The translations under genes were made by a program, and so were the position numbers. From the NCBI GenBank assembly GCA_031259905.1, contig JAIRKS010000058.1, positions 1 through 27,297 on the forward strand: 27,297 nucleotides of DNA, given 5' to 3'. The stretch is from Odoribacteraceae bacterium. Its GTDB lineage: Bacteria > Bacteroidota > Bacteroidia > Bacteroidales > Marinifilaceae. Shown here piece after piece: positions 693 to 26,964 of the stretch (the stretch's first letter is position 1; each line of letters starts with the position of its first letter). The notes beneath the pieces are model-generated. The model was not told where the DNA came from, did not search any database, and saw only the letters and a program-made list of their open reading frames with translations.

Positions 693-923
693 TTTCTACT
701 TCCCCTCTTTCTCTTTCTACTTCAACCGATCACTTTTCTCCTTCGACCGGTCGCTTTTTTACTTAAACAATTCATCCTTTTCGTTCGACCGGTCACTTTT
801 TTACTTAAACAATCTATCCTTCGAGTTCGACCGATTCTCTTTCTACTTCAACCGGTTTCTTTTCGTCTGCAAAGGTATGGTTATTTCGTTCGACATTCCA
901 AATATTTCAACCGATATTTTTTT
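693..923. repeat. Degenerate 21-bp tandem array 1a (pyrimidine-rich on +), 11 in-phase units with the last three heavily decayed
   Basis: Units start at 693, 714, 735, 756, 777, 798, 819 and 840, for example TTTCTACTTCAACCGATCACT, TTTCTCCTTCGACCGGTCGCT and TTTTTACTTAAACAATTCATC. They translate on + as heptads FLLQPIT/FLLRPVA/FLLKQFI. Confidence 0.85.
870..902 (-). promoter_or_regulatory. Bacteroidota primary-sigma promoter (TTTG-N21-TAnnTTTG) pointing at the 1-636 gene
   Basis: Minus strand reads TTTG (902-899), a 21-nt spacer, then TACCTTTG (877-870) followed by CA. This is an exact match to the established Bacteroides -33/-7 consensus TTTG-N19-21-TAnnTTTG. Confidence 0.75.
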
Positions 924-1028
924 CCGGGAGCTCCCAAAATAATTTCGGGAGCTCCCAATTTTATTTTGGGAGCTCCCAAAATCATTTTGGGAGCTCCCAA
1001 TCTTATTTTGGGAGCTCCCAAAATTTTT
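924..1028. repeat. Array 1b: five tandem 21-bp palindromic units (core GGGAGCTCCC)
   Basis: Units start at 924, 945, 966, 987 and 1008. ATTTTGGGAGCTCCCAAAAT (963-982 and 1005-1024) is a perfect 20-bp palindrome. Confidence 0.95.
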
Positions 1029-1039
1029 TGTGGAATACA

Positions 1040-1123
1040 AAAAGAGGGTGGGAGTAATAGAAATCTCCAATGCTGAACGAGAAAAGAGGATGGGAGTAAT
1101 AGAAATCCCCGGTGGTGAACGAG
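1040..1123. repeat. Array 1c: two 42-bp direct repeats
   Basis: AAAAGAGGGTGGGAGTAATAGAAATCTCCAATGCTGAACGAG (1040-1081) versus AAAAGAGGATGGGAGTAATAGAAATCCCCGGTGGTGAACGAG (1082-1123). Confidence 0.9.
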
Positions 1124-1161
1124 AAAAGAAAGAGGGGAGGGTAGTCCGGTGAAAGGCAGGG

Positions 1162-2097
1162 TTATAACTCTCGCCTGGCGGCGGGTAACTCGAAGACGGC
1201 GCCGTCCTCGCACAGGCGGGTGTCGGGAAACACGAGGCGGGCCTGCTCCAGCAGGCAGGAAGGGTCAGGGTAACGGGAAGAGAAGTGGCCGAGCAGCAGC
1301 CGGCCGGCACCGGCCAGCAAGGCCAGTCGCGCGGCCTCTCCCGCGGTGCTGTGGAACGTCTCGCGGGCCAGCCGGGCGAGATCGTCGCCGTAAGTAGCCT
1401 CGTGGTAAAGCAAATCGACCCCCTTGCAATACTCCGCGTGGTCGGGGTGGAAAAGGGTGTCCGTCAGGTAAGCGTACGAGCGGGGCGCCGGGGCGGGCGT
1501 CGTGAGGCGCTCGTTGGCGATGACCTCGCCGTCGGGGGTGACGAAATCCTCGCCCTGCTTGAGGCGGTGCATGAAGGCCACGGGAACGCGGAACGCGTCG
1601 GTCATCTCCCGCCGGACGTGGCGCGGGCGCGGTCGCTCGGCGAAGAGGAAGCCGGACGAGGGCGCGTCGGCGCGGTGTAGCAGGGGGAAGGAGTGGACGG
1701 TGAGGGCCTTATCCTCGTGCAGGAGTTGCGCGTCGCGTCCGATGGGGTGGAAGTGCAGCGGGTAGCGCGGCCGGGAGTGCATCGCGCGCGACAGGAAGTC
1801 GATGATTCCCTGCAGCCTCTCGTCGGCGTAGACGTGCAGGTCTGCGCGTCGTCCCTGCAGCGAGAAGCTGGAGAGCAGCCCCGCGAGGCCGAAGAAGTGA
1901 TCCCCGTGCAGGTGGGAGATGAAAACGTGATTGATCCTGGTGTAGGGCACCTTGAAGCGCCGCAATTGCTGCTGCGTGCCCTCGCCGCAATCGATAAGAA
2001 AAAGCCGCCCCTGCACGTTGAGTACCTGGGCGGCCGAGTTTCGTTGTACCGTGGGCACGGCGGAGCCGCACCCCAGTATGGTCAGTTCAAATTTCAC
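1162..2097 (-). CDS. rnz: Ribonuclease Z
   Basis: LGCGSAVPT N-terminus, LIDCGEGTQ, HLHGDH metallo-beta-lactamase motif, YHEATY, HST and GHFSSRY. The GTG start overlaps the rpsA stop (GTGA). Confidence 0.96.
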   Translation of the reverse strand: MKFELTILGCGSAVPTVQRNSAAQVLNVQGRLFLIDCGEGTQQQLRRFKVPYTRINHVFISHLHGDHFFGLAGLLSSFSLQGRRADLHVYADERLQGIIDFLSRAMHSRPRYPLHFHPIGRDAQLLHEDKALTVHSFPLLHRADAPSSGFLFAERPRPRHVRREMTDAFRVPVAFMHRLKQGEDFVTPDGEVIANERLTTPAPAPRSYAYLTDTLFHPDHAEYCKGVDLLYHEATYGDDLARLARETFHSTAGEAARLALLAGAGRLLLGHFSSRYPDPSCLLEQARLVFPDTRLCEDGAVFELPAARREL

Positions 2098-4025
2098 GCG
2101 TCATTTTTCTCTCCTGATTCGGCTGCCTCGAGTTGGTCTTTCAAGGCGGCCAGCCCGGTGATGTCGCCCAGCGTGGTCTTCTCCAGCTTCTCTTTCACCC
2201 TCCTGACGGCTCTTTTCGTGGCGATGGCTTCCTCGCTTCGCTTGCTTCTCTCGACGGACTTGTGTTCGTCCTCGAAGACGCGCGAGTGGGAGAGGATGAT
2301 CCGCTTGTTGCTCTTGTTGAACTCGATCACCTTGAAGGGCAATTTCTCGTCGACCTTCGCCTGCGTCCCGTTGGCTTTCATCAGGTGGCGCGGCGTGGCG
2401 AATCCCTCGACGCCGTACGGTAAGGCGATGACCGCGCCCTTGTCGTACATCTCGGTGATGATCCCCTCGTAGATGGAGTCGAGCTTGAATACCGTCTCGA
2501 AGACGTCCCACGGGTTCTCTTCCAGCTGCTTGTGGCCGAGGCTGAGGCGCCGGTTGTCCTTGTCTATCTCGAGCACGATCACGTCGATGACCGCCCCGGC
2601 GTGGGTGAACTCGGCCGGGTGCTTCACTTTCCTCGTCCACGAGAGGTCGGAGATGTGAATCAGGCCGTCAACGCCCTCCTCGATCTCGACGAAGACACCG
2701 AAGTTGGTGAAGTTACGCACCGTGGCGACGTGCCTGCTACCGATGCCGTACTTCTCCTCGATGTTCTGCCACGGGTCTTTCTTCAGCTGCTTGATGCCGA
2801 GGGACATTTTCCGCTCGTCCCTGTCAAGGGTGAGGATGAGGGCCTCCACCTCGTCGCCGACCTTCATAAACTCCTGCGCCGAGCGCAAGTGCTGTGACCA
2901 TGACATTTCCGAGACGTGTATCAGGCCTTCCACGCCGGGGGCGATCTCCACGAACGCGCCGTAGTCGGCCATCACGACGACTTTTCCTTTTACCTTGTCG
3001 CCCACCTTCAAGTCACGGCTCAAGGCGTCCCACGGGTGCGGCGTGAGCTGCTTCAACCCGAGGGCGATGCGCTTCTTTTCGTCGTCGAAGTCGAGGATCA
3101 CGACGTTCAGTTTCTGATCCAGCTCGACGACCTCCTCCGGGTGGTTCACGCGGCCCCACGAAAGGTCGGTGATGTGCACCAGCCCGTCGACGCCGCCCAG
3201 GTCCACGAAGACGCCGTAGGAGGTAATGTTCTTGACGGTGCCTTCCAGCACTTGTCCTTTTTCCAGTTTCGAGATGATTTCTCTCTTTTGCAGCTCCAGC
3301 TCGGCCTCGATCAGTGCCTTGTGGGAAACCACCACGTTCTTGTACTCCTGGTTAATCTTCACCACTTTAAATTCCATCGTCTTGCCCACGTAAACGTCGT
3401 AGTCGCGAATCGGCTTCACGTCGATTTGCGATCCCGGCAGGAAGGCCTCGATGCCGAAGACATCGACGATCATGCCGCCTTTCGTGCGACATTTCACCAG
3501 GCCCTTGATGATTTCCTCGTTTTCGAGGGCCGAGTTGACGCGGCTCCAGCTTTGCAACGCCCTCGCTTTCTTGTGCGAGAGCAAGAGCTGGCCTTTTTTG
3601 TCTTCTTGCGTCTCGACGTACACCTCGACGGTGTCGCCGACTTTCAGGTCAGGGTTGTAGCGGAATTCGTTCAGCGAGATGATGCCGTCCGACTTGAAGC
3701 CGATGTTCACGACGACTTCTCTCTTGTTCATCGAGATGACGCGGCCGTTCACGACCTCTTTTTCCGTGACGGAGGCGAGGGTGTCGGTGTACCGCGTCGC
3801 GAGGGTTTCCCGTTCTTCCGCGGGGATGAGCGTGTTTTGCGCGTAGGCGTCCCAGTCGAACTCGGTGTCGGGCGCCTGGGTGTGCACCCGCGGCTTTTTC
3901 TCGATCTTGACCCGGACGCGCTTTTTCTCTTCTACCGGTGCCGTTTCCTGTTGTACCGGCGCTTGTTCTTCCAGCTGTCCCGCGACGTCGCTTTGCAGCT
4001 GCTCGTTGGTTGGTTCTGTTGTCAT
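2094..4025 (-). CDS. rpsA: 30S ribosomal protein S1
   Basis: Six S1 repeats (e.g. GVFVDLGGVDGLVHITDLSW, GAFVEIAPGVEGLIHVSEMSW), the Bacteroidota FDWDAY motif and a C-terminal KTTLGDI motif. Confidence 0.98.
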   Translation of the reverse strand: MTTEPTNEQLQSDVAGQLEEQAPVQQETAPVEEKKRVRVKIEKKPRVHTQAPDTEFDWDAYAQNTLIPAEERETLATRYTDTLASVTEKEVVNGRVISMNKREVVVNIGFKSDGIISLNEFRYNPDLKVGDTVEVYVETQEDKKGQLLLSHKKARALQSWSRVNSALENEEIIKGLVKCRTKGGMIVDVFGIEAFLPGSQIDVKPIRDYDVYVGKTMEFKVVKINQEYKNVVVSHKALIEAELELQKREIISKLEKGQVLEGTVKNITSYGVFVDLGGVDGLVHITDLSWGRVNHPEEVVELDQKLNVVILDFDDEKKRIALGLKQLTPHPWDALSRDLKVGDKVKGKVVVMADYGAFVEIAPGVEGLIHVSEMSWSQHLRSAQEFMKVGDEVEALILTLDRDERKMSLGIKQLKKDPWQNIEEKYGIGSRHVATVRNFTNFGVFVEIEEGVDGLIHISDLSWTRKVKHPAEFTHAGAVIDVIVLEIDKDNRRLSLGHKQLEENPWDVFETVFKLDSIYEGIITEMYDKGAVIALPYGVEGFATPRHLMKANGTQAKVDEKLPFKVIEFNKSNKRIILSHSRVFEDEHKSVERSKRSEEAIATKRAVRRVKEKLEKTTLGDITGLAALKDQLEAAESGEKNDA

Positions 4026-4083
4026 AAATTCAGTTGTTTACAATTTAATAAATCAGACATTATGTTTTGAAGTGATAATGACG

Positions 4084-4091
4084 CGAATGTA
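4084..4091 (-). promoter_or_regulatory. Possible -7 element for rpsA (TACATTCG)
   Basis: One mismatch to TAnnTTTG, about 60 nt upstream of the start, with no clear -33 box. Confidence 0.35.
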
Positions 4092-4243
4092 CGAATAAAT
4101 CTTCACTCCGCGGCGCGTTCCCGGATATTTCCGGCGAGGGGACGCGGGAACGCGAGCGGTCGCGCGAGGCCGGCGGGCATTGCCCGTGATAAAAAAAATA
4201 GCGCGTGGTGGCATTTTACGCGTCGAGGTGGGAAAAAATACCG

Positions 4244-10926: not shown

Positions 10927-12285
10927 ATGATGAAGCTGGTTATTCTTGGAGGCGGGGAGAGCGGCATCGGCGCGGCGCGACTGGGATCGCGGTTGGGCCA
11001 CGCGGTATTCTTGTCGGACAGCGGGCCGCTGACCGGGGGCGCCCGCCACGCGCTGGAAGAGATGCAGGTGGAGTTCGAGGAGGGGGGGCACGACGCGAGG
11101 CGGGTCATGCAGGCGGACCTGGTCGTGAAAAGCCCTGGAATTCCCGACACCCTCCCGCTGGTCGTCTCCCTCCGGGCGGCGGGCGTGGAGGTGATCTCGG
11201 AAATAGAGTTCGCCGGTCGCCACACGGACGCGGCGATGTACTGCATCACGGGGAGTAACGGGAAAACCACCACCACCTTATTATTATACCACCTGCTCCG
11301 GCGCGGCGGACTGGACGTCGGCCTGGCGGGGAACGTCGGGCACAGCCTGGCCGCGCGCGTGGCGACAGACCCTCACGCGGCCTACGTGGTAGAGCTTTCC
11401 AGCTTCCAGCTGGACGGGATGTCCCGTTTCCATTGCGACACGGCCATCTTGACGAACATCACGCCGGACCACCTCGATCGCTACGGCGGGCGGTTCGAGA
11501 GATACGTCGACTCCAAGTTCCGGGTACTCCAGAACGCCCGCCCGCGCGATCTTTTCATCTACGGCACGGATTGCGACGCGGTACGCGAGCGGGTGTCCCG
11601 GACGCGGATCGTCCCCCGCGCGGCGCGCTTCACGTGTCACGACGATCCCGGCCAGGACGCGTGGATGTCGGGCGATCGCCTGCTGGCGCGTCACGAGGGT
11701 CGTCTCTTCTCGATCGACCGGCGGGAGATCTCGATACAGGGTCGCCACAACATGTACAACGCCCAGGCGGCCGTACTGGCGGCGATGAAGGCGGGCGTGG
11801 GGGACGACGACCTGCGGCGCGGCCTGGCGACCTTCCCCCCGGTGGAGCATCGCCTGGAGCGGGTGGCGGTCGTGAACGGCGTCACGTACATCAACGATTC
11901 GAAGGCGACCAACGTCGATTCCGCCCTGTACGCCCTGGAGAGCGTCCCCCCGCCGGTGATCTGGATCGCCGGGGGCACCGACAAGGGGAACGACTACGCG
12001 GCGTTGAAGGCGCTGGCGCGGGAAAAGGTAAAGCTGCTCGTCTGCATGGGAGTGGACAACGCCCGCCTGTCGCGCGAGTTTTCCGGCACGACCGAGGTCG
12101 TCGACACGCGCGGGCTGGACGAGGCGATGGCCGTCGTCGCGGCGCGCGTCGTGCCCGGGGACACGGTGCTCCTCTCCCCGTGCTGCGCGAGCTTCGACCT
12201 CTTCAGGAACTACGAGGATCGCGGGCGGCAATTCAAGGAAAAAGTAATGAATCTAACGCGACAGGATAATGGAAGAGATCATTAA
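10927..12285 (+). CDS. murD: UDP-N-acetylmuramoyl-L-alanine:D-glutamate ligase MurD
   Basis: LGGGESG, VKSPGI, ITGSNGKTTT, ELSSFQL, NITPDHLDRY, NDSKATN and LLSPCCASFDLF. Confidence 0.97.
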   Translation: MMKLVILGGGESGIGAARLGSRLGHAVFLSDSGPLTGGARHALEEMQVEFEEGGHDARRVMQADLVVKSPGIPDTLPLVVSLRAAGVEVISEIEFAGRHTDAAMYCITGSNGKTTTTLLLYHLLRRGGLDVGLAGNVGHSLAARVATDPHAAYVVELSSFQLDGMSRFHCDTAILTNITPDHLDRYGGRFERYVDSKFRVLQNARPRDLFIYGTDCDAVRERVSRTRIVPRAARFTCHDDPGQDAWMSGDRLLARHEGRLFSIDRREISIQGRHNMYNAQAAVLAAMKAGVGDDDLRRGLATFPPVEHRLERVAVVNGVTYINDSKATNVDSALYALESVPPPVIWIAGGTDKGNDYAALKALAREKVKLLVCMGVDNARLSREFSGTTEVVDTRGLDEAMAVVAARVVPGDTVLLSPCCASFDLFRNYEDRGRQFKEKVMNLTRQDNGRDH

Positions 12286-13951
12286 CCGGGCAAAATACTA
12301 CCTCGTCCCGAAGGGTGACAAGATCCTCTGGGTGATGATCCTCGCGTTGATGCTGATCTCGCTGGTCGCGGTCTTCTCGTCCACCGGGAAGCTCGCCTAC
12401 GTCAGCATGGAGGGGGACACGACGCGCCCGTTGTTCAAGCAAGCCGGGCTATTCGTCGCGGCCCTTGGCGTGATGCTCTTCGTTCAATCGATGCACTACA
12501 AGTACTTCATCTCGCTGGCCACGCCCGCGTGCTGGCTGGCGCTGCTGTTGCTGGCGTTGGCGCTCGTGATCTCGCTCCTCGACAATTCGGCGCGTGTCAA
12601 CGATACGGCCCGCTGGATAAAAATCCCCATCCTCGGCAGCATCCAGCCGTCGGAGGTTGCCAAGCTGGGGCTCGTGATGTACATGGCGCGGGTGCTCGCG
12701 TTCGAGCAACTGTCCGATCGCTGTTCCAACCGCGTGCTGTTCAAGATAGCGTTAATCTTCCTTCCCCCGTGGATACTGATCTTCAATGAAAACGCCTCGA
12801 CGTCCGTGCTCCTGGCGCTGGTCTGCGCGGTGATGCTATTCGTCGGGCGCTTGCACTGGAAACCGCTGCTGCTGACGTACGCCGTCGCCGCGGCGCTCGC
12901 CACTGTCTTCCTGGTGACGATCATGAACACCGACAAGCTCGACCACATCGCGCGCGTGGTCACCATCAAGGAGCGGTTGAACAACAAGAACCCCTTCCAG
13001 GCTAACCAGGCCAAGATTGCCATCGCGCGCGGCGGCCTCCACGGCGTCGGGCCGGGGCGCAGCGTGCAGCGGAATTTCCTGCCGAACCCGCAGTCGGATT
13101 ACATCTACGCGATCATCGTCGAGGAGTACGGGCTGCTCGTCGGCGGCATACCGGTGCTGCTCATCTACGCGATCATCCTGTACCGCGTCGGCACGATCGC
13201 CCGGCGATGCACGCGGGCGTTCCCGGCGCTACTCGTGACGGGGCTGGGGATCACGATTTTTCTCCAGGCGATCATACACGTGTGCGTGTGTACCGGCGTT
13301 TTCCCCGTGACCGGCCAGCCCTTGCCGCTGGTGAGCACCGGCGGCACGTCCATCCTCCTCCTCGGCGTCGCCTTCGGGATGATCCAAAGCGTCGCGCACA
13401 CCTTCTCGGACGCCGGGCAACAGGAGGAACGCGAACGACAGGCACGACGAAAAGCCGCCAGGAGAAGGGAAATCGAACGACTGGAACGAGAGGAGGACGA
13501 CGAAACGCTATATTTTCAGCGGCTTTCCCTGAATTTTGAGCGCCCTTTACAAACTTTGAAATGCCTTGTACAAAGTTTGAAATGCCCTTTACAAAGTTTG
13601 AAATGCCCTTTACAAAGTTTGAAATGCCTTGTACAAACTTTGAAATGCCTTGTTCAAATTTCTAGATGCCTTGTCAGAAATTTGAAATGCCCTTTACAAA
13701 GTTTGAAATGCCTTGTACAAACTTTGAAATGCCCTTTACAAACTTTGAAATGCCTTGTACAAACTTTGAAATGCCCCTGTACAAAGTTTGAAATGCCCTT
13801 TACAAAGTTTGAAATGCCTTGTACAAACTTTGAAATGCCCTGTACAAAGTGTGAAATGCCCTGTACAAAGTTTGAAATATCCCCCCGTGTCGCCCGTTTG
13901 GCGGCGCGTGAATGGCCGTGGCGCCTGACCCTTTTACCCTTTAACGCGTGA
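12269..13951 (+). CDS. ftsW: Peptidoglycan glycosyltransferase FtsW (SEDS family) with an in-frame repeat-derived C-terminal extension
   Basis: ARWIKIP, IQPSEVAK, FQANQAKIAIARGG, LPNPQSDYIYAII and GQPLPLVSTGGTS. The membrane core ends near 13400, but there is no in-frame stop until TGA at 13949-13951. Confidence 0.93.
   Translation: MEEIINRAKYYLVPKGDKILWVMILALMLISLVAVFSSTGKLAYVSMEGDTTRPLFKQAGLFVAALGVMLFVQSMHYKYFISLATPACWLALLLLALALVISLLDNSARVNDTARWIKIPILGSIQPSEVAKLGLVMYMARVLAFEQLSDRCSNRVLFKIALIFLPPWILIFNENASTSVLLALVCAVMLFVGRLHWKPLLLTYAVAAALATVFLVTIMNTDKLDHIARVVTIKERLNNKNPFQANQAKIAIARGGLHGVGPGRSVQRNFLPNPQSDYIYAIIVEEYGLLVGGIPVLLIYAIILYRVGTIARRCTRAFPALLVTGLGITIFLQAIIHVCVCTGVFPVTGQPLPLVSTGGTSILLLGVAFGMIQSVAHTFSDAGQQEERERQARRKAARRREIERLEREEDDETLYFQRLSLNFERPLQTLKCLVQSLKCPLQSLKCPLQSLKCLVQTLKCLVQISRCLVRNLKCPLQSLKCLVQTLKCPLQTLKCLVQTLKCPCTKFEMPFTKFEMPCTNFEMPCTKCEMPCTKFEISPRVARLAAREWPWRLTLLPFNA
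13534..13878. repeat. Array 2: 16 tandem 21-bp units, consensus TTTGAAATGCC(T/C)T(G/T)TACAAA(G/C)
   Basis: Units start at 13534 (degenerate), 13555, 13576 and so on to 13850, with a partial unit at 13871. The unit at 13765-13786 is 22 bp. Units contain TTGTACAA and CAAA-S-TTTG dyads. Confidence 0.97.
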
Positions 13952-13955: not shown

Positions 13956-15059
13956 ATGAAAAAGATAATCATCAGTGGCGGCGGTACCGGCGGGCACGTC
14001 TTCCCGGCCATCGCGATCGCCAACGCGCTGGAACGATCCGGGCAGGACGTGGAGATCCTGTTCGTCGGCGCGGAAGGACGACTGGAAATGGAGAAGGTCC
14101 CCGCGGCAGGTTACCGCGTGATCGGCCTGCCGGTGCGGGGTTTCCGTCGCCGGTTAACGTGGGAAAACGCGGCGGTCGTCGCGAGCCTCTACCGTAGCCT
14201 GCGCGCGGCGCGTCGCGTCGTGGACGACTTTCGCCCGGACGCGGTCGTGGGCGTCGGCGGGTACGCCAGCGGCCCGGTGGGCTGGGCGGCCACGCGGGCG
14301 GGCGTCCCCCTGGTGCTGCAAGAGCAGAACTCGCTCGCCGGCGTGACGAATCGCCTGCTGGCGCGCCGGGCGGCGAGGATCTGCGTGGCGTACGAGGGGA
14401 TGGAACGCTACTTCGGGAAAGAAAAAGTGATCCTCACCGGCAACCCCGTGCGCGAGGAATTGCCGCGGGCGATCCACGCGCGGGAAGAAGGCATCGCCTT
14501 CCACGGGCTGGACGCGCGACGGAAAACGGTGCTCGTCACCGGCGGAAGCCTCGGCGCCGCGAGCCTGAACCGGGCCGTGTCGAGGTGGCTGGAGCGATTC
14601 GCCGCGTGGGACGACGTGCAGGTGCTGTGGCAGTGCGGCAAGGGTTACAGCCAGGGGCTGGAACGGGCGTTGAGAGGGACGATCCCGCCGAACGTGATCC
14701 TGACGCCGTTCCTGGAACGCGTGGAGCTGGCGTACGCCTGTGCCGACGTCGTGGTGGCGCGGGCGGGCGCGTGCACGATCTCGGAGCTGACCCTGCTGGG
14801 AAAGGCCGCGGTGCTGGTGCCGTCGCCGAACGTCTCCGGGGACCACCAGACGAGGAACGCCCGCGCGCTGGTCGACAAGGGCGCCGCCATCCTGCTGGCC
14901 GACGGGGAAGTAGAGGCGCGGCTGGCCGACACGCTCGCCGCGCTGCTGGCCGATGACGGGAGACGACGCGACCTGTCGGAACGTGCCCGGGCGCTGGGAC
15001 GGCCGGACGCGAGCGAGCGGATCGCCGGGATAATTCTCTCCGTGACGAACAAAAATTGA
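13956..15059 (+). CDS. murG: N-acetylglucosaminyl transferase MurG
   Basis: IISGGGTGGHVFPA, VGVGGYASGP, LQEQNS, TGNPVR, GGSLGA, RAGACTISE and DHQTRNA. Confidence 0.98.
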   Translation: MKKIIISGGGTGGHVFPAIAIANALERSGQDVEILFVGAEGRLEMEKVPAAGYRVIGLPVRGFRRRLTWENAAVVASLYRSLRAARRVVDDFRPDAVVGVGGYASGPVGWAATRAGVPLVLQEQNSLAGVTNRLLARRAARICVAYEGMERYFGKEKVILTGNPVREELPRAIHAREEGIAFHGLDARRKTVLVTGGSLGAASLNRAVSRWLERFAAWDDVQVLWQCGKGYSQGLERALRGTIPPNVILTPFLERVELAYACADVVVARAGACTISELTLLGKAAVLVPSPNVSGDHQTRNARALVDKGAAILLADGEVEARLADTLAALLADDGRRRDLSERARALGRPDASERIAGIILSVTNKN

Positions 15060-18358: not shown

Positions 18359-19636
18359 ATGATCGATAGATTGATACATATAAACGCTCCCGTGCAGAAA
18401 GCGCCCGGCATTAAGGTATTGGGCGTGGGCGGGGGCGGTTGCAATGCCGTGAACTACATGTATTACCAGGGAATACAGAACGTGGACTTCATGGTATGTG
18501 ACACGGATTTACAAAAACTGCGTCAAAGCCCGGTGCAGAACCGGGTGCAGATCGGGAAAGACTCGACCGGGGGACTCGGGGCGGGAAGTAACCCGGAGCA
18601 AGGAAAGACGTCAGCCAACGAGACCCTCGACTACCTCCGTTCCGTGCTGGAGAACAATACTAAAATGCTCTTCATCGCGGCCGGGATGGGAGGAGGAACA
18701 GGCACGGGGGCTGCTCCCGTCATCGCCGATTTATCAAGGAGTTTAGGTATACTGACCGTCGCCATCGTGACGATTCCCTTCAATTTCGAGGGGAAACGGC
18801 GCGTGGAACAGGCGTTAAAGGGAATCGAGGAGCTGGATAAACACGTCGACTCCCTGTTGATCATCTGTAACGAGAAGTTACTGAAAATACACGACAACCT
18901 GAAATTGTCCCAGGCTTTCAAGAAAGCCGACGACGTGTTGGCGGTCGCCGCCAGGAGTATCGCGGAGATTATCACCATAAGAGGGTTTGTCAATATCGAC
19001 ATGAAAGACGTGAAGTCAGTGATGAACAATAGCGGGGTAGCCCTCATGGGTGCCGGTGACGCGTCCGGTCCGGATCGGGCAATGGAGGCGGTGAAAAAGG
19101 CCCTGGACTCCCCGCTGTTGAACAGTAGCGATATCCGGGGAGCTTCCGAGGTCTTGTTAAACATCTTGTACGGGGAAGAGGAAGTGACGCCCCAGGAGGG
19201 AGAATCAATAAAAGCCTACCTGAAAGAACTGGTAGGGGGCGACGTGGATTTTAACTGGGGATCGGGAAAGGACGATACGCTGGAAGATAAATTACGAGTG
19301 GTAGTGATCGTCACGAGATTTAAGCAGAGGGCCTTGGAATCACCCTATTCTGCCCCGGTCTTCAAGGTCGAGGAGGTCGAGGAGGAGGAAGAGCTGCGGC
19401 TGATGGTGGAGGATGCCCGACAGCTGGAAGAAAAGAAACGGCAGCAATATAAAACGAGACAAGAGCAACAGCAACGTAAGGAGCAAAAGGAAACACTTCC
19501 ACGCGAGAAACAGAAGCAAGGGAAAAACACCCCCCCCGACCAGGATGGTTGGCTCCAACGAACATTTGGACATATTTTTAACACAGACGCGAATCTGGCA
19601 AGAGACACGGATATATCAAAGGAATCTGGATCATGA
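18359..19636 (+). CDS. ftsZ: Cell division protein FtsZ, first copy
   Basis: IKVLGVGGGGCNAV, GLGAGSNP, GMGGGTGTGAAP, PFNFEGKRR and T7 loop NIDMKDV. Confidence 0.93.
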   Translation: MIDRLIHINAPVQKAPGIKVLGVGGGGCNAVNYMYYQGIQNVDFMVCDTDLQKLRQSPVQNRVQIGKDSTGGLGAGSNPEQGKTSANETLDYLRSVLENNTKMLFIAAGMGGGTGTGAAPVIADLSRSLGILTVAIVTIPFNFEGKRRVEQALKGIEELDKHVDSLLIICNEKLLKIHDNLKLSQAFKKADDVLAVAARSIAEIITIRGFVNIDMKDVKSVMNNSGVALMGAGDASGPDRAMEAVKKALDSPLLNSSDIRGASEVLLNILYGEEEVTPQEGESIKAYLKELVGGDVDFNWGSGKDDTLEDKLRVVVIVTRFKQRALESPYSAPVFKVEEVEEEEELRLMVEDARQLEEKKRQQYKTRQEQQQRKEQKETLPREKQKQGKNTPPDQDGWLQRTFGHIFNTDANLARDTDISKESGS

Positions 19637-20826
19637 AAGATAGATTGATTAATTTTATCCAAGACGAGACTTCCCCGGTCATCATTAAGGTGATTGGCGT
19701 GGGTGGAGGTGGCGGCAATGCCGTGGCGTACATGTCGGAAGAGGGGATACATGACGTGGATTTCGTGGCGTGTAACACGGATAGCCAGGCGCTCCAGGGA
19801 CTTCCTGATATTGTCAAATGCATACAACTGGGCCAGAGCTTGACGGGGGGAGAGGGCGCCGGCAACAATCCCGAAAGGGGCGAGGCCGCTGCTCTCGAGA
19901 GTTTAGAGGAAATAGAATCCATGTTGCGGGAGAATACCAAGATGGCTTTCATCACGGCGACGATGGGCGGGGGGACCGGGACAGGCGCCGCCCCCGTGAT
20001 CGCCAAGGCGGCCAAGGAGATGAATATCCTCACCGTGGGCGTGGTAACCTTCCCCATGCGCTCGGATGGCCCGAAGCGGGTCAAACAAGCACACGAGGGG
20101 ATCAAGCGGATGCAGGAGCACGTGGACGCGCTGCTCGTCATTGATAACGAGAAAATCTGTAGCTTGTACGGGTCGAGAACGCAGACCGACGCCTTTAACA
20201 AGGCCAACGACGTGTTAAAGGTCGCGGTGAAAGGCATCGCCGAGATCATCACCTTGCCGGGGTACATCAACGTGGATTTCTCCGACGTGAAGACGGTGCT
20301 GACCAATAGTCGCATGGCCATCATGGGAGCGGCCAAGGCATCGGGCAAGGGCCGGGCGGAACGGGTGATCGCGGAAGCGCTGAATAGCCCGCTGCTCAAT
20401 ATAAGCGACCTGTCGGATGCCAACGACATCTTGTTGAGCATCTCTTCGGGCATTGACGATAACGAGATTTCGGTACCCGAGTTGATAACGATCACCTCTT
20501 ACATGACTGACCGGGTGGGGGATGTTTCGGTAATCTGGGGTGTCGGTATGGACGAGACGTTGGGAGAAGATCTCTCCGTGACGATCATCGCCACGGGCTT
20601 CCCCTTCACGGAGGTGGACGACGCGCCGGTGAATATTCCCGGGATGGATTCCGGGACAGCACGGGAAGAGACGTACCAGAACAACGATAGCGTGATCGAT
20701 TACGCCGGCATGATATTGAAGAAACCGGACGTGTCCTTGCAACCTGATCTTACTGTCGAGGAAATACGCGAGTTGAAGATGACGCCGGCCTATACCCGGC
20801 GAAGAATAAAAGTGAATAAGATTTAG
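19633..20826 (+). CDS. ftsZ: Cell division protein FtsZ, second copy
   Basis: IKVIGVGGGGGNAV, CNTDSQAL, TMGGGTGTGAAP, T7 loop NVDFSDV and C-terminal PAYTRR. It has an ATGA overlap with copy 1. Confidence 0.93.
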   Translation: MKDRLINFIQDETSPVIIKVIGVGGGGGNAVAYMSEEGIHDVDFVACNTDSQALQGLPDIVKCIQLGQSLTGGEGAGNNPERGEAAALESLEEIESMLRENTKMAFITATMGGGTGTGAAPVIAKAAKEMNILTVGVVTFPMRSDGPKRVKQAHEGIKRMQEHVDALLVIDNEKICSLYGSRTQTDAFNKANDVLKVAVKGIAEIITLPGYINVDFSDVKTVLTNSRMAIMGAAKASGKGRAERVIAEALNSPLLNISDLSDANDILLSISSGIDDNEISVPELITITSYMTDRVGDVSVIWGVGMDETLGEDLSVTIIATGFPFTEVDDAPVNIPGMDSGTAREETYQNNDSVIDYAGMILKKPDVSLQPDLTVEEIRELKMTPAYTRRRIKVNKI

Positions 20827-20876: not shown

Positions 20877-22811
20877 ATGGAAAGATTTAGAGAATTAGGT
20901 TTAGACGGGGAGATTCTTCAAGGGATCGCGGATTTGGGCTTTGAAACACCGACTCCTGTACAAGAGAAGACAATTCCCGTGATTTTGGGCGAAACAAACG
21001 ACCTGGTCGTTCTGGCTCAAACGGGAACGGGAAAGACGGCCGCCTTCGGGCTACCGTTACTGCAAAAGATCGACGCGGGGAATAAAGACACCCAGGTGTT
21101 GATCTTAAGCCCCACGCGGGAATTGTGCGTGCAGATCGGGAATGATCTGAAGAATTACTCGAAGCACAGGAAAGACATCAGCGTCACCTGCGTGTACGGG
21201 GGCACCGATATCCGGAAACAGATACGGGAAGTACAACGCGGGGTACACATCATCGTGGCAACGCCGGGGCGGCTGGTTGATTTACTGGAACGCGGGGTAG
21301 TACACATCGGGACGATATTCGCCGTGGTGCTGGACGAGGCCGACGAGATGTTGAACATGGGTTTCCAGGAGGAATTAAATTCCATCCTCGAGGCCACGCC
21401 AAAAGAGAAAAACACCTACCTCTTCTCGGCAACAATGCCGAAAGAGGTGGAGAGAATCGCCAAAAACTACCTGGTGAACCCCGTGGAAATCGCCGTCGGG
21501 AAGAAAAACCAGGGGGCAGACACGGTCTCGCACCACTACTACATGGTGCGTGCCAAGGACTGTTACGAGACACTGCGCCGGGTCGTCGACTGTGCACCGG
21601 ACATGTACGCTATCATCTTTACCCGCACGAAGAATGACGCGAGCGATATTGCCAAGCATTTGCAGAAAGACGGTATCGACTGCGACGCCCTGCACGGCGA
21701 CCTGAGCCAGGCGCAACGGGACAACGTGATGGCCGCCTTCCGCTCCAAGCGCTTAAAAGTTCTCGTGGCCACCGACGTCGCGGCCAGGGGACTGGACGTG
21801 GATTGCCTGACGCACGTCATCAACTACAACCTGCCTGACGACGTGGAGAGCTATACCCACCGCAGTGGACGCACCGGACGCGCGGGGAAGGAAGGAATCT
21901 CCATCGCGATCATTCACTCCCGCGAGAAGGGCAAGTTACGCCGCATCGAGGGGATGTTGAAAAAACAATTCATCTACCAGGAAGTGCCCGATGGCGACAG
22001 TATCTGCCGGGCGCAGCTCGCCTTCTACGCCGACAAGATCTTGAACTCCGAGATGCAGGAAGAGTTGGAGCGCTATGACCAGGGGGTTTTCGAGAAATTC
22101 GAGGCATTGAGCAAGGAAGAATTAATACAGCATTTAGTCTCCTACGAGTTCGGTAAACTCTTGAAGAAATACAAGGACACGGAAGACCTGAACTTATCGG
22201 CCGGGGAACGGGGCGAGCGAGGTGAACGAGGAGAACGAGGTGAACGAGGCGGACGAGGTGAACGAGGCGGACGGGGAGAACGCGGCGATCGTGGTGATCG
22301 TGGTGATCGCGGCGAGCGAGGCGAACGCGGTGATCGTGGCGATCGTGGTGATCGTGGCGATCGCGGCGATCGTGGTGATCGCGGCAGGGAGATCTTCTTC
22401 AGTGCCTTCTCGATGAATGTCGGGCGAGAGGACGGGATGACCCCCCGCGACTTGATGGCCTTGATTAACCAGAATTCCCGTCACCGCAACGTGGAGGTGG
22501 GCGGCATACAGATATACGATACCGACACCCGCTTCGAGATCGACGAGAGTAGCGCTCATGATTTCTTCGTGGACTTCAAGCGGGTATTCTTTAACGGCAT
22601 ACCGGTGACGCTCGTTCCCTTCTCCGGTCGGGTCGAGAGCGGCGCTCGCGGCCGGGATCGCCGCGGTGGTCGCGCGCCTGCCTTCTCCAGCAGGTCCGGG
22701 TACGACCGCCGGGGCAGGTACAGCCGGCGGCGCGAGGAAGAAACCCCTGGGAAACGTCGCGGGAAACCGGGAAGCAACCCCAAAAAACCCAGGAACTTTA
22801 GCAGATCCTGA
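20877..22811 (+). CDS. DEAD-box RNA helicase with a DbpA/CsdA-type RNA-binding domain
   Basis: Q motif GFETPTPVQ, AQTGTGKT, DEAD, SAT, ARGLD and HRSGRTGRAG, followed by an RBD-like segment (MNVGREDGMTPRDL) and a basic tail. Confidence 0.95.
   Translation: MERFRELGLDGEILQGIADLGFETPTPVQEKTIPVILGETNDLVVLAQTGTGKTAAFGLPLLQKIDAGNKDTQVLILSPTRELCVQIGNDLKNYSKHRKDISVTCVYGGTDIRKQIREVQRGVHIIVATPGRLVDLLERGVVHIGTIFAVVLDEADEMLNMGFQEELNSILEATPKEKNTYLFSATMPKEVERIAKNYLVNPVEIAVGKKNQGADTVSHHYYMVRAKDCYETLRRVVDCAPDMYAIIFTRTKNDASDIAKHLQKDGIDCDALHGDLSQAQRDNVMAAFRSKRLKVLVATDVAARGLDVDCLTHVINYNLPDDVESYTHRSGRTGRAGKEGISIAIIHSREKGKLRRIEGMLKKQFIYQEVPDGDSICRAQLAFYADKILNSEMQEELERYDQGVFEKFEALSKEELIQHLVSYEFGKLLKKYKDTEDLNLSAGERGERGERGERGERGGRGERGGRGERGDRGDRGDRGERGERGDRGDRGDRGDRGDRGDRGREIFFSAFSMNVGREDGMTPRDLMALINQNSRHRNVEVGGIQIYDTDTRFEIDESSAHDFFVDFKRVFFNGIPVTLVPFSGRVESGARGRDRRGGRAPAFSSRSGYDRRGRYSRRREEETPGKRRGKPGSNPKKPRNFSRS
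22209..22388 (+). repeat. Coding 9-bp repeat: 20 consecutive RG-x tripeptides in the helicase
   Basis: Codon-by-codon reading from 22209: RGE x4, RGG, RGE, RGG, RGE, RGD x3, RGE x2, RGD x6, RGR. Confidence 0.95.
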
Positions 22812-22812
22812 A

Positions 22813-22863: not shown

Positions 22864-23472
22864 ATGGAAATTCGCGGTGCAACGTTCGTGACGAGTAATA
22901 CAGACGTGAGGCAATGCCCGGCCCCGGACCGGCACGAGTACGCTTTTATCGGGAGGTCTAACGTCGGGAAATCGTCGTTGATCAACATGCTAACCAACAA
23001 CGGTAAACTGGCGAAGACCTCCTCCACGCCCGGCAAGACGCGGTTAATAAACCATTTCCTGGTCAATAACGAGTGGTACCTCGTAGATCTTCCCGGCTAC
23101 GGGTACGTCAAATCCTCCAGGGAATCGCGGAAACAATTCAACGCGCTCATTCGTGACTACATCCTGCACCGGGAAAACATGGTTTGCCTGTTCGTGCTGG
23201 TGGATAGTCGTCACGCCCCGCGCGCGATCGACCTGGAGTTCATGGCCTGGCTGGGAGAGAACGGCATCCCGTTCGCGATCGTCTTCACCAAGGCCGACAA
23301 GCTGACCGCACGCGCGTGTCGCGACAGCATGGCCGCGTACGAGAACGTGATGCTTGAACAGTGGGAGAGCATGCCGAAAACGTTCCTGACCTCGGCGGAG
23401 AGTCGCCAGGGAAGGGAAGAGCTACTGGGTTACCTGGATGAATTGAACCGGACCGTCGACAAGTTCTGGTAA
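22864..23472 (+). CDS. engB: GTP-binding protein EngB (YihA/YsxC)
   Basis: G1 GRSNVGKSS, TPGKT, DLPGYG and TKADK. The true start is the ATG at 22864 (MEIRGATFVTS), not the ORF-track start at 22666. Confidence 0.96.
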   Translation: MEIRGATFVTSNTDVRQCPAPDRHEYAFIGRSNVGKSSLINMLTNNGKLAKTSSTPGKTRLINHFLVNNEWYLVDLPGYGYVKSSRESRKQFNALIRDYILHRENMVCLFVLVDSRHAPRAIDLEFMAWLGENGIPFAIVFTKADKLTARACRDSMAAYENVMLEQWESMPKTFLTSAESRQGREELLGYLDELNRTVDKFW

Positions 23473-23514
23473 CCGGCAGGCAACACGTGAAACACTAAAC
23501 ACCAGTATCCCGCG

Positions 23515-24888
23515 ATGAATGCCATCGGCTTATACCGCTTAAACGAGCTTGTCAAGCAGCTCTTGCACGAGAACCTGCCGGGCGCCAGGTGGGTGATCGC
23601 CGAGATCGCCGACGTCAAGGAAAACCGTTCCGGGCACTGTTACATCGAGCTGGTCGAGAAACGGGAAGAAGACAACGTGATCATCGCCTCCTCGCGTGCC
23701 GTGATCTGGGCGTTCGTCTACCGTTCACTAAAACCCGCCTTCGAGGCCGTCACCGGGCAGGCGTTGCAACCCGGCTTGAAGGTACTGCTGGAAGTAGAAA
23801 TCACCTTCCACGAGCTATACGGCTACTCGCTTAACGTCAGGGACATTGACCCCTCCTTCACGATCGGTAACCTCGAGAGGACGCGGCGAGAGATCATCGA
23901 CCGCCTGACGCACGACGGCGTGATCGACATGAACCGCTCGTTGCCGTTCCCCGCGTTACCGAAATCCATCGCCATCATCTCCTCGCCGACCGCCGCCGGG
24001 TACGAGGATTTCGTGAACCAGCTGCGCGCGAACGCCCGCGGGTACGCCTTCCATACTTGCCTCTTCCACGCGGTCATGCAGGGAGAGAAGAGCGCCGAGT
24101 CGATCATCGACGCCCTGGAGCGAGTACACGCTGCCGGCGATCTCTTCGACGTCGTCGTCATCGTCCGCGGGGGGGGATCGCGTGCCGACCTGAGTTGCTT
24201 TAATTCTCACGAGTTAGCGCTCAACGTCGCGTGCTTCCCCTTGCCGGTGCTCGCCGGGATCGGTCACGAGCGCGACGAGAGCATCGTCGACCGGGTGGCC
24301 CACGTGTCGTTGAAGACCCCCACGGCCGTTGCCGACTTCCTGTTGAAGGCGTTCCGGGATGCCGACGAGCTTCTCGAGGAGGGGCGCGCGCGCTTCATCA
24401 CGGCGGTCAAACGCCTGTCGCGGGAGGAGAACCAGCGGCAGGTGGCCCGCGCGAGTGCCGTCGGGAGATTGACGCGTGCCCTGCTCGAGCGGCAGGACGT
24501 ACGCCTCGCCCGCGCCTCGCGGGAGATCGACCATCGCTCGACGCTCCTCCTGCAACGTCGCACGGACACGCTCGCGCGGTTCGGCGATCTCCTGGAGGGA
24601 CATCTCGCCGCGCGCTTTCACCGTCACGCCGCGCGCCTGGGGGAACTCTGCCGGGAGTGTCGCGTGCACGTGGAGCGCTTGCTCGCCGCTAGGCGTCACG
24701 CCCTGGAGCTGGCCGGGACGAAGGCCGCCGGCGCCGACCCGCGACGCGTCCTGGAACGCGGGTACTCCATCACGCGCGTCAACGGGAAGGTCGCGCGCGA
24801 CGCGTCCGCCCTGGAGCGCGGCGACATCGTGGAGACCGAACTGCTCCACGGGCGCGTCGTGAGCGAGATCAAGGAGATTAAAAAATAG
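23515..24888 (+). CDS. xseA: Exodeoxyribonuclease VII large subunit
   Basis: OB-fold SGHCYIELVEK, IISSPTAAGYEDF, VRGGGSRADL, GIGHERD, TPTAVA and LERGYSI. Confidence 0.96.
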   Translation: MNAIGLYRLNELVKQLLHENLPGARWVIAEIADVKENRSGHCYIELVEKREEDNVIIASSRAVIWAFVYRSLKPAFEAVTGQALQPGLKVLLEVEITFHELYGYSLNVRDIDPSFTIGNLERTRREIIDRLTHDGVIDMNRSLPFPALPKSIAIISSPTAAGYEDFVNQLRANARGYAFHTCLFHAVMQGEKSAESIIDALERVHAAGDLFDVVVIVRGGGSRADLSCFNSHELALNVACFPLPVLAGIGHERDESIVDRVAHVSLKTPTAVADFLLKAFRDADELLEEGRARFITAVKRLSREENQRQVARASAVGRLTRALLERQDVRLARASREIDHRSTLLLQRRTDTLARFGDLLEGHLAARFHRHAARLGELCRECRVHVERLLAARRHALELAGTKAAGADPRRVLERGYSITRVNGKVARDASALERGDIVETELLHGRVVSEIKEIKK

Positions 24889-24913
24889 CATGGACCTTTA
24901 ACACGAAAAAAGT

Positions 24914-25108
24914 ATGGATAAACTAACGTACAAGGAAGCGATAAAAGAGATCGAGCAGATGATCGAGAAGCTGGAGGCAAACGAGTTGGACGTGGATGAC
25001 CTCGGGGAGAAAGTGAAGCGCGTCGCCTGGCTCGTGGCCTTTTGCAAGACCAGGTTGCACGACACGGAGGTGGAGGTGGAGAAGATCCTGCGCTCGATAG
25101 AAGAATGA
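24914..25108 (+). CDS. xseB: Exodeoxyribonuclease VII small subunit
   Basis: LTYKEAIKEIEQMIEKLE...LDVDDL...CKTRLHDTEVEV, 64 aa, directly after xseA. Confidence 0.93.
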   Translation: MDKLTYKEAIKEIEQMIEKLEANELDVDDLGEKVKRVAWLVAFCKTRLHDTEVEVEKILRSIEE

Positions 25109-26496
25109 ACGGGCGGTTACTCCTCGCGTGCGGTCTTTCCTTCCTCCCGTCCCTGCTGCTCGCGCGGCCGGCGGCGACGCCGCGGGATCTCCAGCGCGCC
25201 CCCGGCCTGGAGCACGCCTCGATCAGCATCTCCGTCAAGCGCGTGGACGACGGGCGGGTCGTGCACGAGTATAACCCGCGACTTTCCCTGCGACCGGCAT
25301 CGGTCATGAAGCTCCTCCCCGCGTTCCTCGCGCTGGAGAAGGAGGGCGCGGCGTTCACGTACCGCACGACCCTCTCTCACTCCGGCACGATCCGCGACGG
25401 GGTGCTGCACGGGCAACTCGTCATCACGGCGGGAGGGGATCCCGCGTTGGGATCTGCCTGTTTCCCCGGCGATTCCTTCCCGCGGCAAGTCGTGGAGGCG
25501 ACGCGACGGGCCGGCATCAAGCGCCTCCTCTCGCCGCCCGTCGTGGAGGAGCGCGGCGACCCGCCCCGCGTGCCCGGCTCGTGGCCGTGGGAGGACGTCT
25601 CCAACTATTACGGCGCGCTGTATCACCCTTTTAATTACAGGGACAACACGTACACGATCACCCTGGCGGCCGGGCAACCGGGTGAGCCGGCGAGGATCCT
25701 CGCCGTTGACCCGCCGACGATGGAGCTTGCCCTCGATAACCGGGCGATTACCGACCCGGCGGGGAGGAACGACGTTTGGATATACGGCGGCCCGCTCGCC
25801 TCGCGGCTGCTGCTGGCGGGCAGCGTGACGGGTGATCCCCCTTGTTATCCCGTGAAGGGGGCCATGCACGCGCCTTCACGGGCGTTCGCGCGGGAGCTGA
25901 CCGCGTTGCTGGAGGAGGAGGGCATCGCCGTGGGTCGCGACGGTTTGCCGGGGGATCTTCCCGCGCCGGGCGAGGAGCGGCGCGTGCTCTTGACGGTGGA
26001 GTCCCCGCCGCTGGAGGAGATCGTCTATCAAACGAACAGGAAGAGCGTCAACCTCTTCGCGGAGGCGCTGGGGGCGCTGGTAGATCCCGCGGCTTTCGGT
26101 CGGGCGGCGAAGGAGCGGCTCGGTAGCGCCGGGATAGACACGTCGGGCGTGATCATCGAGGACGCGTGTGGCCTCTCGCCGGCGAACGCGGCGCCGGCCG
26201 GTTTTTTTACTGATTTCCTCGCGTGGGCTTACCCGCGCTCGCCCGCCTTCCTGGCGTCGCTCCCGGAGGGGATGGTGGACGCGTCTCTCGCCGTTTATGC
26301 CGCTCACCCCTCTCTCGGCCCTCACCTGCGAGCCAAGACCGGCTCCATGACGCGGGTGCGCGCGCTCGCCGGCTACCTGTTCTCTCCCCGCGACGGCTGG
26401 CTGGCGTTCACGATTATCGTCAATAATTACACGTGCACTCCCCGACAGCTGCAAGAGTTGCTCCGTGACTTCCTCGCCAGCTTCTCCCGCCCCTGA
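25105..26496 (+). CDS. dacB: D-alanyl-D-alanine carboxypeptidase/endopeptidase PBP4
   Basis: Signal-like N-terminus from ATG 25105 (ATGA overlap with xseB), PASVMK (SxxK), GGDP, KSVNLFAE (SxN), DACGLS and AKTGSM. Confidence 0.93.
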   Translation: MNGRLLLACGLSFLPSLLLARPAATPRDLQRAPGLEHASISISVKRVDDGRVVHEYNPRLSLRPASVMKLLPAFLALEKEGAAFTYRTTLSHSGTIRDGVLHGQLVITAGGDPALGSACFPGDSFPRQVVEATRRAGIKRLLSPPVVEERGDPPRVPGSWPWEDVSNYYGALYHPFNYRDNTYTITLAAGQPGEPARILAVDPPTMELALDNRAITDPAGRNDVWIYGGPLASRLLLAGSVTGDPPCYPVKGAMHAPSRAFARELTALLEEEGIAVGRDGLPGDLPAPGEERRVLLTVESPPLEEIVYQTNRKSVNLFAEALGALVDPAAFGRAAKERLGSAGIDTSGVIIEDACGLSPANAAPAGFFTDFLAWAYPRSPAFLASLPEGMVDASLAVYAAHPSLGPHLRAKTGSMTRVRALAGYLFSPRDGWLAFTIIVNNYTCTPRQLQELLRDFLASFSRP

Positions 26497-26591
26497 CCCG
26501 TCCCTCGCCAGGCAGGGGGGGGGACATCGCGACTTCCTCTCCAACTTCTCCCGTCCCTGATCTCTCCCTTACCAGACAGGATGGAGTGTCT
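26464..26591. repeat. Degenerate 64-bp tandem duplication of the dacB 3' end
   Basis: 26464-26496 (CGTGACTTCCTCGCCAGCTTCTCCCGCCCCTGA) matches 26528-26560 (CGCGACTTCCTCTCCAACTTCTCCCGTCCCTGA) at 29/33. The following 31 nt match at 18/31. Confidence 0.85.
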
Positions 26592-26754
26592 CCTCCCTGC
26601 CTGCTTAGCGCCTTCACGGGACTGCCCAGGCGCGAAACGTCGTGCGAGTGCCCTCGTGTTAGTATCCTTTAAGAGTTGATTGCTGTTATTGGCGATACGG
26701 CCATTTTCACGCCTTTTCGCGTTAAAAAAAAGTTATATTCCGAGGTGGTACACG

Positions 26755-26964
26755 GTGTACCACCGCCTCGCCATCATGTCCCACCGCCCCGCCACCATGT
26801 ACCACCGCCCCGCCACCATGTTCCATCGCCCCGCCACCATGTTCCACTGCCCCGCCATCATGTACCACCGCCCCGCCACCATGTTCCACCACCCCGCCAT
26901 CATGTACCACCACCCCGCCATCATGTACCACCGCCCCGCCACCATGTTCCATCGTCCCGCCATC
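26755..26964. repeat. Array 3: ten tandem 21-bp C-rich units, consensus ATGT(A/T)CCACCGCCCCGCCA(C/T)C
   Basis: Units start at 26755, 26776, 26797 and so on to 26944, all exactly 21 bp. The array lies between the convergent dacB and kinase genes. Confidence 0.97.

Follow-up and report, generated by a model that had tools for sequence, protein, structure and literature searches.

Bacterial minisatellites are usually treated as products of local slippage or as passengers of MITEs (miniature inverted-repeat transposable elements). The subject of this analysis is a set of three tandem arrays with a 21-bp period on contig JAIRKS010000058.1 of an Odoribacteraceae bacterium (assembly GCA_031259905.1), the whole of which, 27,297 bp, is referred to as the window: array 1 beside rnz, array 2 between ftsW and murG, and array 3 between dacB and a YegS-like kinase gene. 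The evidence on the whole leans towards reading them, together with the many other arrays of the same period in the draft genome, as one class of non-coding minisatellites whose unit measures two turns of the helix (21 bp) or four (42 bp) and is constrained in length by phasing. New here are the extreme array density in the genus, two gene-family linkages replicated across the order, and an orthologue comparison.

Among the elements described so far, BrickBuilt and PgRS, two minisatellite MITEs from Porphyromonas gingivalis, come closest. In Klein et al. (2015, PMC4596501), BrickBuilt and MITE464/PgRS are described as intergenic elements of Bacteroidales with spacer-less units of 23 nt and 41 nt, leader and tail segments, small inverted-repeat ends and 10-20 copies per genome, and promoter activity is reported for BrickBuilt. 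The arrays of this genome are likewise spacer-less, with units of 21 and 41-43 bp, and lie between called genes. In contrast to the one or two unit families of those elements, they comprise dozens of unrelated families and about 300 arrays with a period of 21/42 bp; they are also chained into mosaic, partly fold-back composites and strictly linked to two gene families, features by which they differ from the elements as presented there. The IS5-type end of BrickBuilt, GAGACC(T/A)TTGCA, has no match in this genome, whereas other inverted ends are present, namely TCCCCTCTTTCT within the window and CAGGGCAAACG, which occurs 13 times.

As a functional analogue, repetitive extragenic palindromic sequences and bacterial interspersed mosaic elements (REP/BIME) come closest. 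REP/BIME and REPIN-RAYT systems of Proteobacteria consist of short palindromic extragenic units in mosaic clusters, prefer gaps after genes and number hundreds per genome, and in E. coli REP/BIME are bound by architectural proteins (IHF, gyrase). Unlike these, the present units follow one another strictly head to tail at a fixed period of 21 bp, many of them are non-palindromic and a large number of sequence families is represented. A search for the Y1 transposase RAYT (PF01797) found none in this incomplete genome and one in only a single genus mate out of five, all of them incomplete metagenome-assembled genomes (MAGs).

Iterons and plasmid centromeres (sopC, parC) are built from tandem units of about 20-43 bp at multiples of the helical turn, commonly contain dyads and lie beside the gene of their binder. 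The arrays described here are instead chromosomal, number in the hundreds and stand beside housekeeping genes, and the adjacent proteins of the two linked families, family X and DUF6261, show no Rep, ParB or ribbon-helix-helix fold. Upstream of the hmw genes of Haemophilus influenzae, 7-bp promoter-proximal repeats tune adhesin expression. The present arrays resemble such tracts as tandem repeats between or beside promoter elements of multi-copy genes, one family of which, DUF6261, is linked to the adhesin HagB by an automatic ESM Atlas cluster label, but their units of 21 or 42 bp differ from the 1-7 bp of hmw-type tracts.

Period spectrum and density of the arrays

The window is an entire contig of a draft MAG (1.87 Mb, 235 contigs, 65% completeness, 60.6% GC) whose source sequencing run is a termite-gut metagenome. 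Tandem Repeats Finder was applied to the window and then to the full draft, and overlapping hits were merged into loci; unit counts are values from this short-read draft assembly. A first-pass annotation, made from the letters of the window, had reported three 21-bp arrays, and these were recovered at essentially the positions it gave and with the sequences it described.

Among the 428 merged tandem-repeat loci of the draft, the minimum period was 21 bp in 217 and 42 bp in 48, and periods of 22, 41 and 43 bp occurred in 12, 11 and 6 loci, respectively. The remaining periods accounted for at most 24 loci each (12 bp, 24; 15 bp, 20; 18 bp, 16; 24 bp, 15). About 224 of the 246 loci of at least 80 bp (91%) fell into the 21n class (period 21, 22 or 41-43), which in total comprises about 298 arrays that together take up 48.6 kb (2.6%) of the assembly. 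The suspicion raised by the first-pass annotation that a shared 21-bp period is not a coincidence was thus borne out by the whole-draft spectrum it had proposed, which shows a massive excess at 21 and 42. As it had also noted, the arrays are not CRISPR, since their units abut and unique spacers are lacking.

Assembly artefacts were named in the same annotation as an outcome that would undo its proposal. Units of array 2 together with both flanks were found in k=31 Logan unitigs, both from the source run and from one belonging to a separate study, so that the arrays are no product of the MAG assembler. As many as 127 arrays reach a contig end, which makes them a main cause of the fragmentation of the draft.

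For comparison, 43-170 kb were sampled from each of 13 relatives, of which five are genus mates. Array densities in the genus mates were 1.2, 4.7, 8.5, 12.0 and 21.8 per 100 kb, and 15.9 in this genome. Other genera of the family had 0-3.6 arrays per 100 kb, chiefly two-copy noise, and the background outside the genus was about 1-4 per 100 kb. Arrays also recur in isolate-grade genomes and in five other MAGs. The class is common throughout Bacteroidales, and this termite-gut genus shows a huge amplification of it.

Gene context of the arrays

The arrays occupy the gaps between called genes; with arrays masked, the median distance to the closest called open reading frames (ORFs) is about 100-130 bp. 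The first-pass annotation had placed each of its three arrays at or just past a gene 3' end, a rule that proved weak genome-wide: gene 3' ends formed 108 of 188 array flanks (57%), compared to 49% when the flanks of all intergenic gaps are counted. Array gaps were enriched in convergent gene pairs (27 vs 15%). An array was located within 300 bp upstream of 88 genes and within 300 bp downstream of 125. Many arrays have four to six open frames, near the roughly 4.5 out of 6 estimated for chance, and long ORFs contain only short two-copy repeats. Frame-preserving heptads, one of the earlier suggestions for the shared length, therefore fail as an explanation.

Gene families linked to arrays

A search for gene families that co-occur with the arrays, as suggested in the first-pass annotation, returned two, family X and DUF6261 (PF19775). 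Homology between the two was considered and rejected (hhalign probability 0.1).

Family X occurs in 7-11 copies in this genome, in 12 in the genus mate G005 and in 19 in G009, which belongs to another genus. An array of 21-bp period with 4-22 units was found directly upstream in 21 of 21 evaluable loci from seven genomes, and the linkage holds in the array-poor genus mate G001 as well as in G009 with its GC content of 39%. The arrays stop about 70-85 bp ahead of the ATG, and at 12 of 19 loci the end of the gene-proximal one falls between -69 and -91. Three further families of the order were sampled as well, and there 21-bp arrays lie upstream of family X in 4-5 of 6 loci. The member in the window (positions 1-636, - strand) encodes about 230 aa with an N-terminal helical domain and a C-terminal FN3 domain and is truncated at the contig end; its product has no Pfam or NCBIfam match. 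In an AlphaFold2 (AF2) model of the orthologue from the genus mate G004 (predicted local distance difference test, pLDDT, 89), the C-terminal half matches FN3 domains, and family X is accordingly modelled as a helical domain followed by an FN3 sandwich. Full-length relatives are only unnamed Bacteroidota proteins. A strict -7 box precedes the proximal array in the window and at four other family-X loci, and matches in a strict-consensus promoter search at family-X loci were too few to generalise.

DUF6261 was flagged in a paralog scan in which 42 clusters were tested for adjacency to arrays (uncorrected p = 0.006). Among 30 loci from 13 genomes, arrays with a period of 40-43 bp lie upstream in 19 of 22 evaluable genes. 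In 10 further genomes of at least 90% completeness from other families of the order, they were found in 15 of 25 cases, with the array ending 217-375 bp before the start of the domain, so that 34 of 47 loci across Bacteroidales combine DUF6261 with a 41/42-bp array. Each copy has a different array unit, mostly with a palindrome. The AF2 model (pLDDT 91) is an all-alpha bundle with no significant match in PDB or Swiss-Prot. An ESM Atlas cluster that shares this fold and Pfam family bears the automatic label 'putative hemagglutinin HagB', and HagB of P. gingivalis is a studied adhesin. The literature searched contained no report of repeats upstream of hagB, and none of an array linkage to the two gene families, including the available part of the BrickBuilt paper.

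Genes of both families are often cut by contig ends, within the gene or right 5' of it (C11:8497-8925, C189:9-443, C104, C155, C225 and others). As these genes and their upstream arrays break short-read assemblies, the copy numbers of family X and DUF6261 are under-counted. In relatives, arrays of 7-bp period were seen downstream of several family-X and DUF6261 genes (AGAGTAT in 15.6 copies, ACTACTC in 11 copies; L108 1-113, L131 480-583, L199 1345-1429, L181 188-265 and L127 750-848), and 21 equals 3 x 7.

Two further clusters of the paralog scan adjoin arrays. For PKD_2 (PF16407, about 500 aa), 8 of 11 paralogs have an array just after the stop codon (contigs C116, C131, C132, C140, C207, C219, C227 and C52; period 21-22 bp in seven and 41 bp on C131), which probably reflects operon-end positions. 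The draft has four MutS-family genes (C181:7018-9705 and three paralogs), three of which adjoin arrays (uncorrected p = 0.018); this adjacency is probably due to chance, and mismatch-repair paralogs are relevant to repeat stability. No HU-HIG gene was found directly after an array; the only match was an ordinary HU gene (PF00216, E = 6.5e-33; C25:630-908, - strand), whose nearest array is on its downstream side. RAYT/Y1 and IS5 DDE transposases were tried as drivers of the arrays and were not found, the genomes being incomplete.

Array 1 as the upstream region of a family-X gene

Array 1 is a conserved upstream region of the family-X gene at 1-636. The first-pass annotation had placed it at the 3' end of rnz (ribonuclease Z; 1162-2097, - strand; NF000801, E = 1.4e-93), which lies upstream of the composite; this position is correct, but the region is best called the upstream region of gene 1-636 (- strand) and not merely the 3' side of rnz. 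Likewise, the 16 in-phase units first counted come close, but the 21-base rows of 709-1030 resolve into 7.4 units, 63 bases and five units. Tandem Repeats Finder called a heterogeneous composite with segments at 714-768 (period 21), 742-833 (period 42, 2.2 copies), 926-1030 (period 21, 5.0 copies) and 1040-1129 (period 42, 2.1 copies).

Starting from the gene, the first part is a proximal 21-bp array at 709-862 (- strand) with 7.4 units, purine-rich in the gene sense and spanning -226 to -73 from the ATG at 636. It is followed by 63 bases at 863-925 (- strand), three 21-base rows that look like decayed units and that hold a Bacteroidetes-type promoter motif, TTTG-N21-TACCTTTG. The regular expression TTTG-N17-23-TAnnTTTG has a single match, at -266 from the ATG. 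With the strict -7 box upstream of it, the proximal array would be transcribed and is probably a leader. Farther up, a palindromic 21-bp array at 926-1030 consists of five units with the core GGGAGCTCCC and an AT-rich linker and belongs to a 10-locus family. The outer arm of the composite is a 42-bp repeat at 1040-1129 (+ strand) with two units, purine-rich on the + strand. The composite is enclosed by terminal inverted repeats of 15 nt with 93% complementarity, the left one at 701-715 (+ strand; TCCCCTCTTTCTCTT) and its partner at 1124-1138 (+ strand), and the segment 660-1160 folds as DNA with z = -8.3.

The orthologue in G005 has 47% protein identity to the window gene. Its proximal array likewise has 7.4 units and lies at -227 to -73, while the unit sequences of the two are unrelated. 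Both loci share the same layout: the proximal array is immediately preceded by a strict -7 box (TAnnTTTG), and a palindromic array farther up and an outer array complete it. The palindromic arrays of the window, G004 and G005 have a common dyad centre, AGCT, and paired changes at +/-3 to +/-5, so that both arms differ together from the window core GGGAGCTCCC to TTTGAGCTCAAA and TTGTAGCTACAA in G004 and G005. Since period, position and layout survive full turnover of the sequence, and since each gene family keeps its own period, length appears to be constrained and not merely inherited.

Array families and dispersed elements

Clustering by k-mers resolved 141 array families, of which 105 were singletons and the largest comprised 21 loci. 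Arrays 1, 2 and 3 of the window belong to families of about 10, 11 and 3 loci. Most family pairs have no similarity beyond chance, in agreement with the early observation that the three unit sequences are unrelated, and the period therefore outlasts the sequence. A small excess of weakly related pairs was detected (23 vs 5.4 expected). No motif is universal to all units; the only sharing is of a few 6-mers, ACTTTC and AAAGTT among them, each present in about 5-6 of 61 families.

Flanks are common to several loci, and adjoining arrays of different families keep a fixed order. In one complete element of 377 bp (C168:5277-5653), CAGGGCAAACG and CGTTTGCCCTG form inverted ends. Ten of the 13 genome occurrences of CAGGGCAAACG are within 600 bp of an array. 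Each array belongs to a dispersed family, and many families have terminal inverted repeats, junctions or leaders in common. The three are hence not slippage repeats that converged independently, the default against which the first-pass annotation had argued. Between thrS and a MoxR-like gene, a solo CAGGGCAAACG leader (C167:4759-4830) is not followed by any array and may be a remnant or an array seed.

Array 2 (13542-13878, + strand) has a period of 21 bp and 16.0 copies with 86% matches and 1% indels; its consensus is GCCCTGTACAAAGTTTGAAAT. It is located between the ftsW core and murG, which starts with an ATG at 13956. The open frame of ftsW runs from 12269 to 13951 (+ strand); the membrane core ends near 13420, and from there no stop occurs until 13949, so that array 2 is read as Cys-rich heptads and the frame ends 5 bp before the murG ATG. 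The frame has 564 codons, compared to 382-474 in relatives of other genera, and its extension is probably an incidental read-through caused by the insertion. In G005 the ftsW frame is also long (521 codons) and enters a different, 23-bp array. The ftsW-murG junction is array-free in G001 and G002. Array 2 is thus an orphan copy that is missing at the same site in congeners. For the annotation of MAGs this implies that arrays not only fragment short-read assemblies but can also produce spurious open frames, of which the apparent tail of 176 codons on FtsW is an example.

Array 3 (26756-26968, + strand) has a period of 21 bp and 10.1 copies with 88% matches and 0% indels (consensus TGTACCACCGCCCCGCCACCA); it is C-rich and not palindromic. 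It lies between the convergent genes dacB and the YegS-like kinase, the C-terminus of which is encoded at 27001-27297 (- strand). In its leader (26690-26755, + strand), a terminator-like hairpin and an A-run occur together with a piece of the repeat unit in inverted orientation. This leader of about 65 bp also precedes a sister array on contig C87 (common to C78 and C87). No array was found downstream of dacB in G001, G003 or G004, and because synteny is lost there the insertion boundaries of array 3 are unreadable. Array 3 is likewise an orphan copy, not at the same site in congeners.

Interpretation of the fixed period

The favoured reading distinguishes two settings, gene-linked arrays ahead of family X and DUF6261, such as array 1, and orphan arrays, such as arrays 2 and 3. 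In the gene-linked setting, period, position and layout are inherited with the gene, and the unit sequence turns over by symmetric changes that keep the dyad. Orphans are dispersed, multi-copy, mosaic MITE-like composites in any intergenic gap, recognisable by common leaders and terminal inverted repeats, and their spread may represent MITE-type or recombinational movement of the same bricks. Arrays would grow, shrink and homogenise in whole units via slippage or unequal recombination, and a constraint at the level of the double helix would remove lengths that break the two-turn phasing. The likeliest constraint would be a dimeric or architectural protein that binds cooperatively to dyads on one helix face.

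Several structural signals are consistent with such phasing. Perfect stems of at least 6 bp occur in 45 of 146 21-mer units, compared to about 3.6 expected. Successive unrelated palindrome centres were 21 bp apart in 102 cases, 10-10.5 bp apart in 75 and 42 bp apart in 31, counts that are inflated by repetition within arrays and families and are not independent. In two-palindrome 42-mers taken by consensus, 16 of 20, from about five families, are spaced at multiples of 10.5 bp. AT and GC are segregated into one AT and one GC block per 21-bp unit (z = 3.7). Modulation of AT content at 10.5 bp is absent, and only the 21-bp harmonic is enriched.

Besides the interdependence of the palindrome spacings, several observations weigh against this reading. 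A dyad is lacking in many units, those of array 3 among them, and about two thirds of units have no significant stem. Periods of 22, 23, 41 and 43 bp occur as well; 23-bp arrays were found in both G001 and G005, and the ruler would therefore be soft (21-23 and 41-43). In the window, the promoter motif precedes the proximal array, which may therefore act as RNA. A reader protein was not found, neither family X nor DUF6261 has a recognisable DNA-binding fold, and the two gene families account for only 16 of the 298 arrays in this genome. Y1_Tnp (RAYT, PF01797) and DDE_Tnp_1 were not found in the 65%-complete draft.

A bolder version, which we hold tentatively and give somewhat less than an even chance, is that the arrays represent an undescribed cis-element system of Bacteroidales: arrays locked to two or four helical turns would be obligate partners of particular expanded gene families (21 bp with family X, 41/42 bp with the HagB-like DUF6261), be read by a protein sensitive to phase or structure, and in some lineages have escaped to hundreds of intergenic gaps, with their length as a molecular ruler. 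One length rule extends over hundreds of sequence-unrelated arrays and also stands ahead of two gene families across a gut-dominant order. If a physical ruler or a reader protein does lie behind this rule, promoters or the nucleoid of Bacteroidales would be organised at a new level, including upstream of HagB-like genes.

Alternative explanations

The alternative that survives best is nonetheless unlikely, namely that the period is a frozen accident. In that case the arrays would form one MITE minisatellite superfamily related to BrickBuilt/PgRS, whose period is simply inherited and maintained by concerted evolution and which has neither a function nor a ruler. The terminal inverted repeats, common leaders, mosaic composites and multi-copy families agree with such an origin, as do the array-free sites in congeners and the excess of weakly related family pairs (23 vs 5.4 expected). 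The 23- and 41-nt internal repeats of P. gingivalis MITEs (PMC4596501) point the same way. However, although units have diverged to randomness, about 90% of arrays are at exactly 21 bp, and neutral indels would be expected to spread the periods. Moreover, each gene family keeps its period across the order, orthologues keep array position and unit number, and the IS5-type end of BrickBuilt does not occur in the genome.

Less probable still is an action at the level of RNA, in which stacks of hairpins in 5' leaders and at 3' ends would serve as stabilisers, terminators or translation enhancers, and the unit length would be that of a minimal stable hairpin. Palindromic units, the weak bias towards gene 3' ends, the excess at convergent pairs, the -7 box upstream of the proximal array in the window and at four other family-X loci, and the terminator-like hairpin in the array-3 leader would all be accommodated. 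It is at odds with the roughly two thirds of units that lack a significant stem and with the occurrence of arrays in both orientations and at both gene ends, and in the window the promoter motif has the palindromic array on its upstream side. In addition, an RNA function gives no reason for exactly 21 bp or for dyad spacings of 10.5 bp.

We consider it very improbable that a dedicated enzyme, such as a template-switching polymerase or a fixed-stagger recombinase, makes the arrays in place by copying local sequence in 21-nt steps. This was one of the options put forward by the first-pass annotation and is not favoured because units recur at many loci. Two species with different arrays at the same ftsW-murG junction would fit local synthesis, as would the 105 singletons among 141 k-mer families; as the genome is only 65% complete, however, many singletons may have missing partners. 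The larger families, in contrast, have units, leaders and junctions common to several loci, and the arrays have no candidate enzyme associated with them: among the 42 paralog clusters scanned, only DUF6261, PKD_2 and MutS came up, with uncorrected p of at least 0.006.

That the arrays encode heptad-repeat peptides (21 bp being seven codons) or are assembly artefacts is hardly credible: it would suit the ftsW frame that is open through array 2 and the four to six open frames of many arrays, but open frames are close in number to the chance estimate, arrays lie between called genes with only short two-copy repeats inside long ORFs, and units are present in unitigs of two studies as well as in other MAGs and isolate-grade genomes.

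Other features of the window

Two ORFs at the end of the dcw cluster, 18359-19636 (425 codons) and 19633-20826 (397 codons), are in tandem with a 4-base overlap; the first-pass annotation took them for two diverged copies of ftsZ. In a DEAD-box RNA helicase gene (20877-22811), the part for the C-terminal tail contains a repeat with a 9-bp period at 22206-22385 (higher-order periods 18, 27 and 45), which encodes Arg/Gly/Asp-rich triplets with weak matches to collagen-like adhesins and is an ordinary coding repeat outside the 21-bp class.

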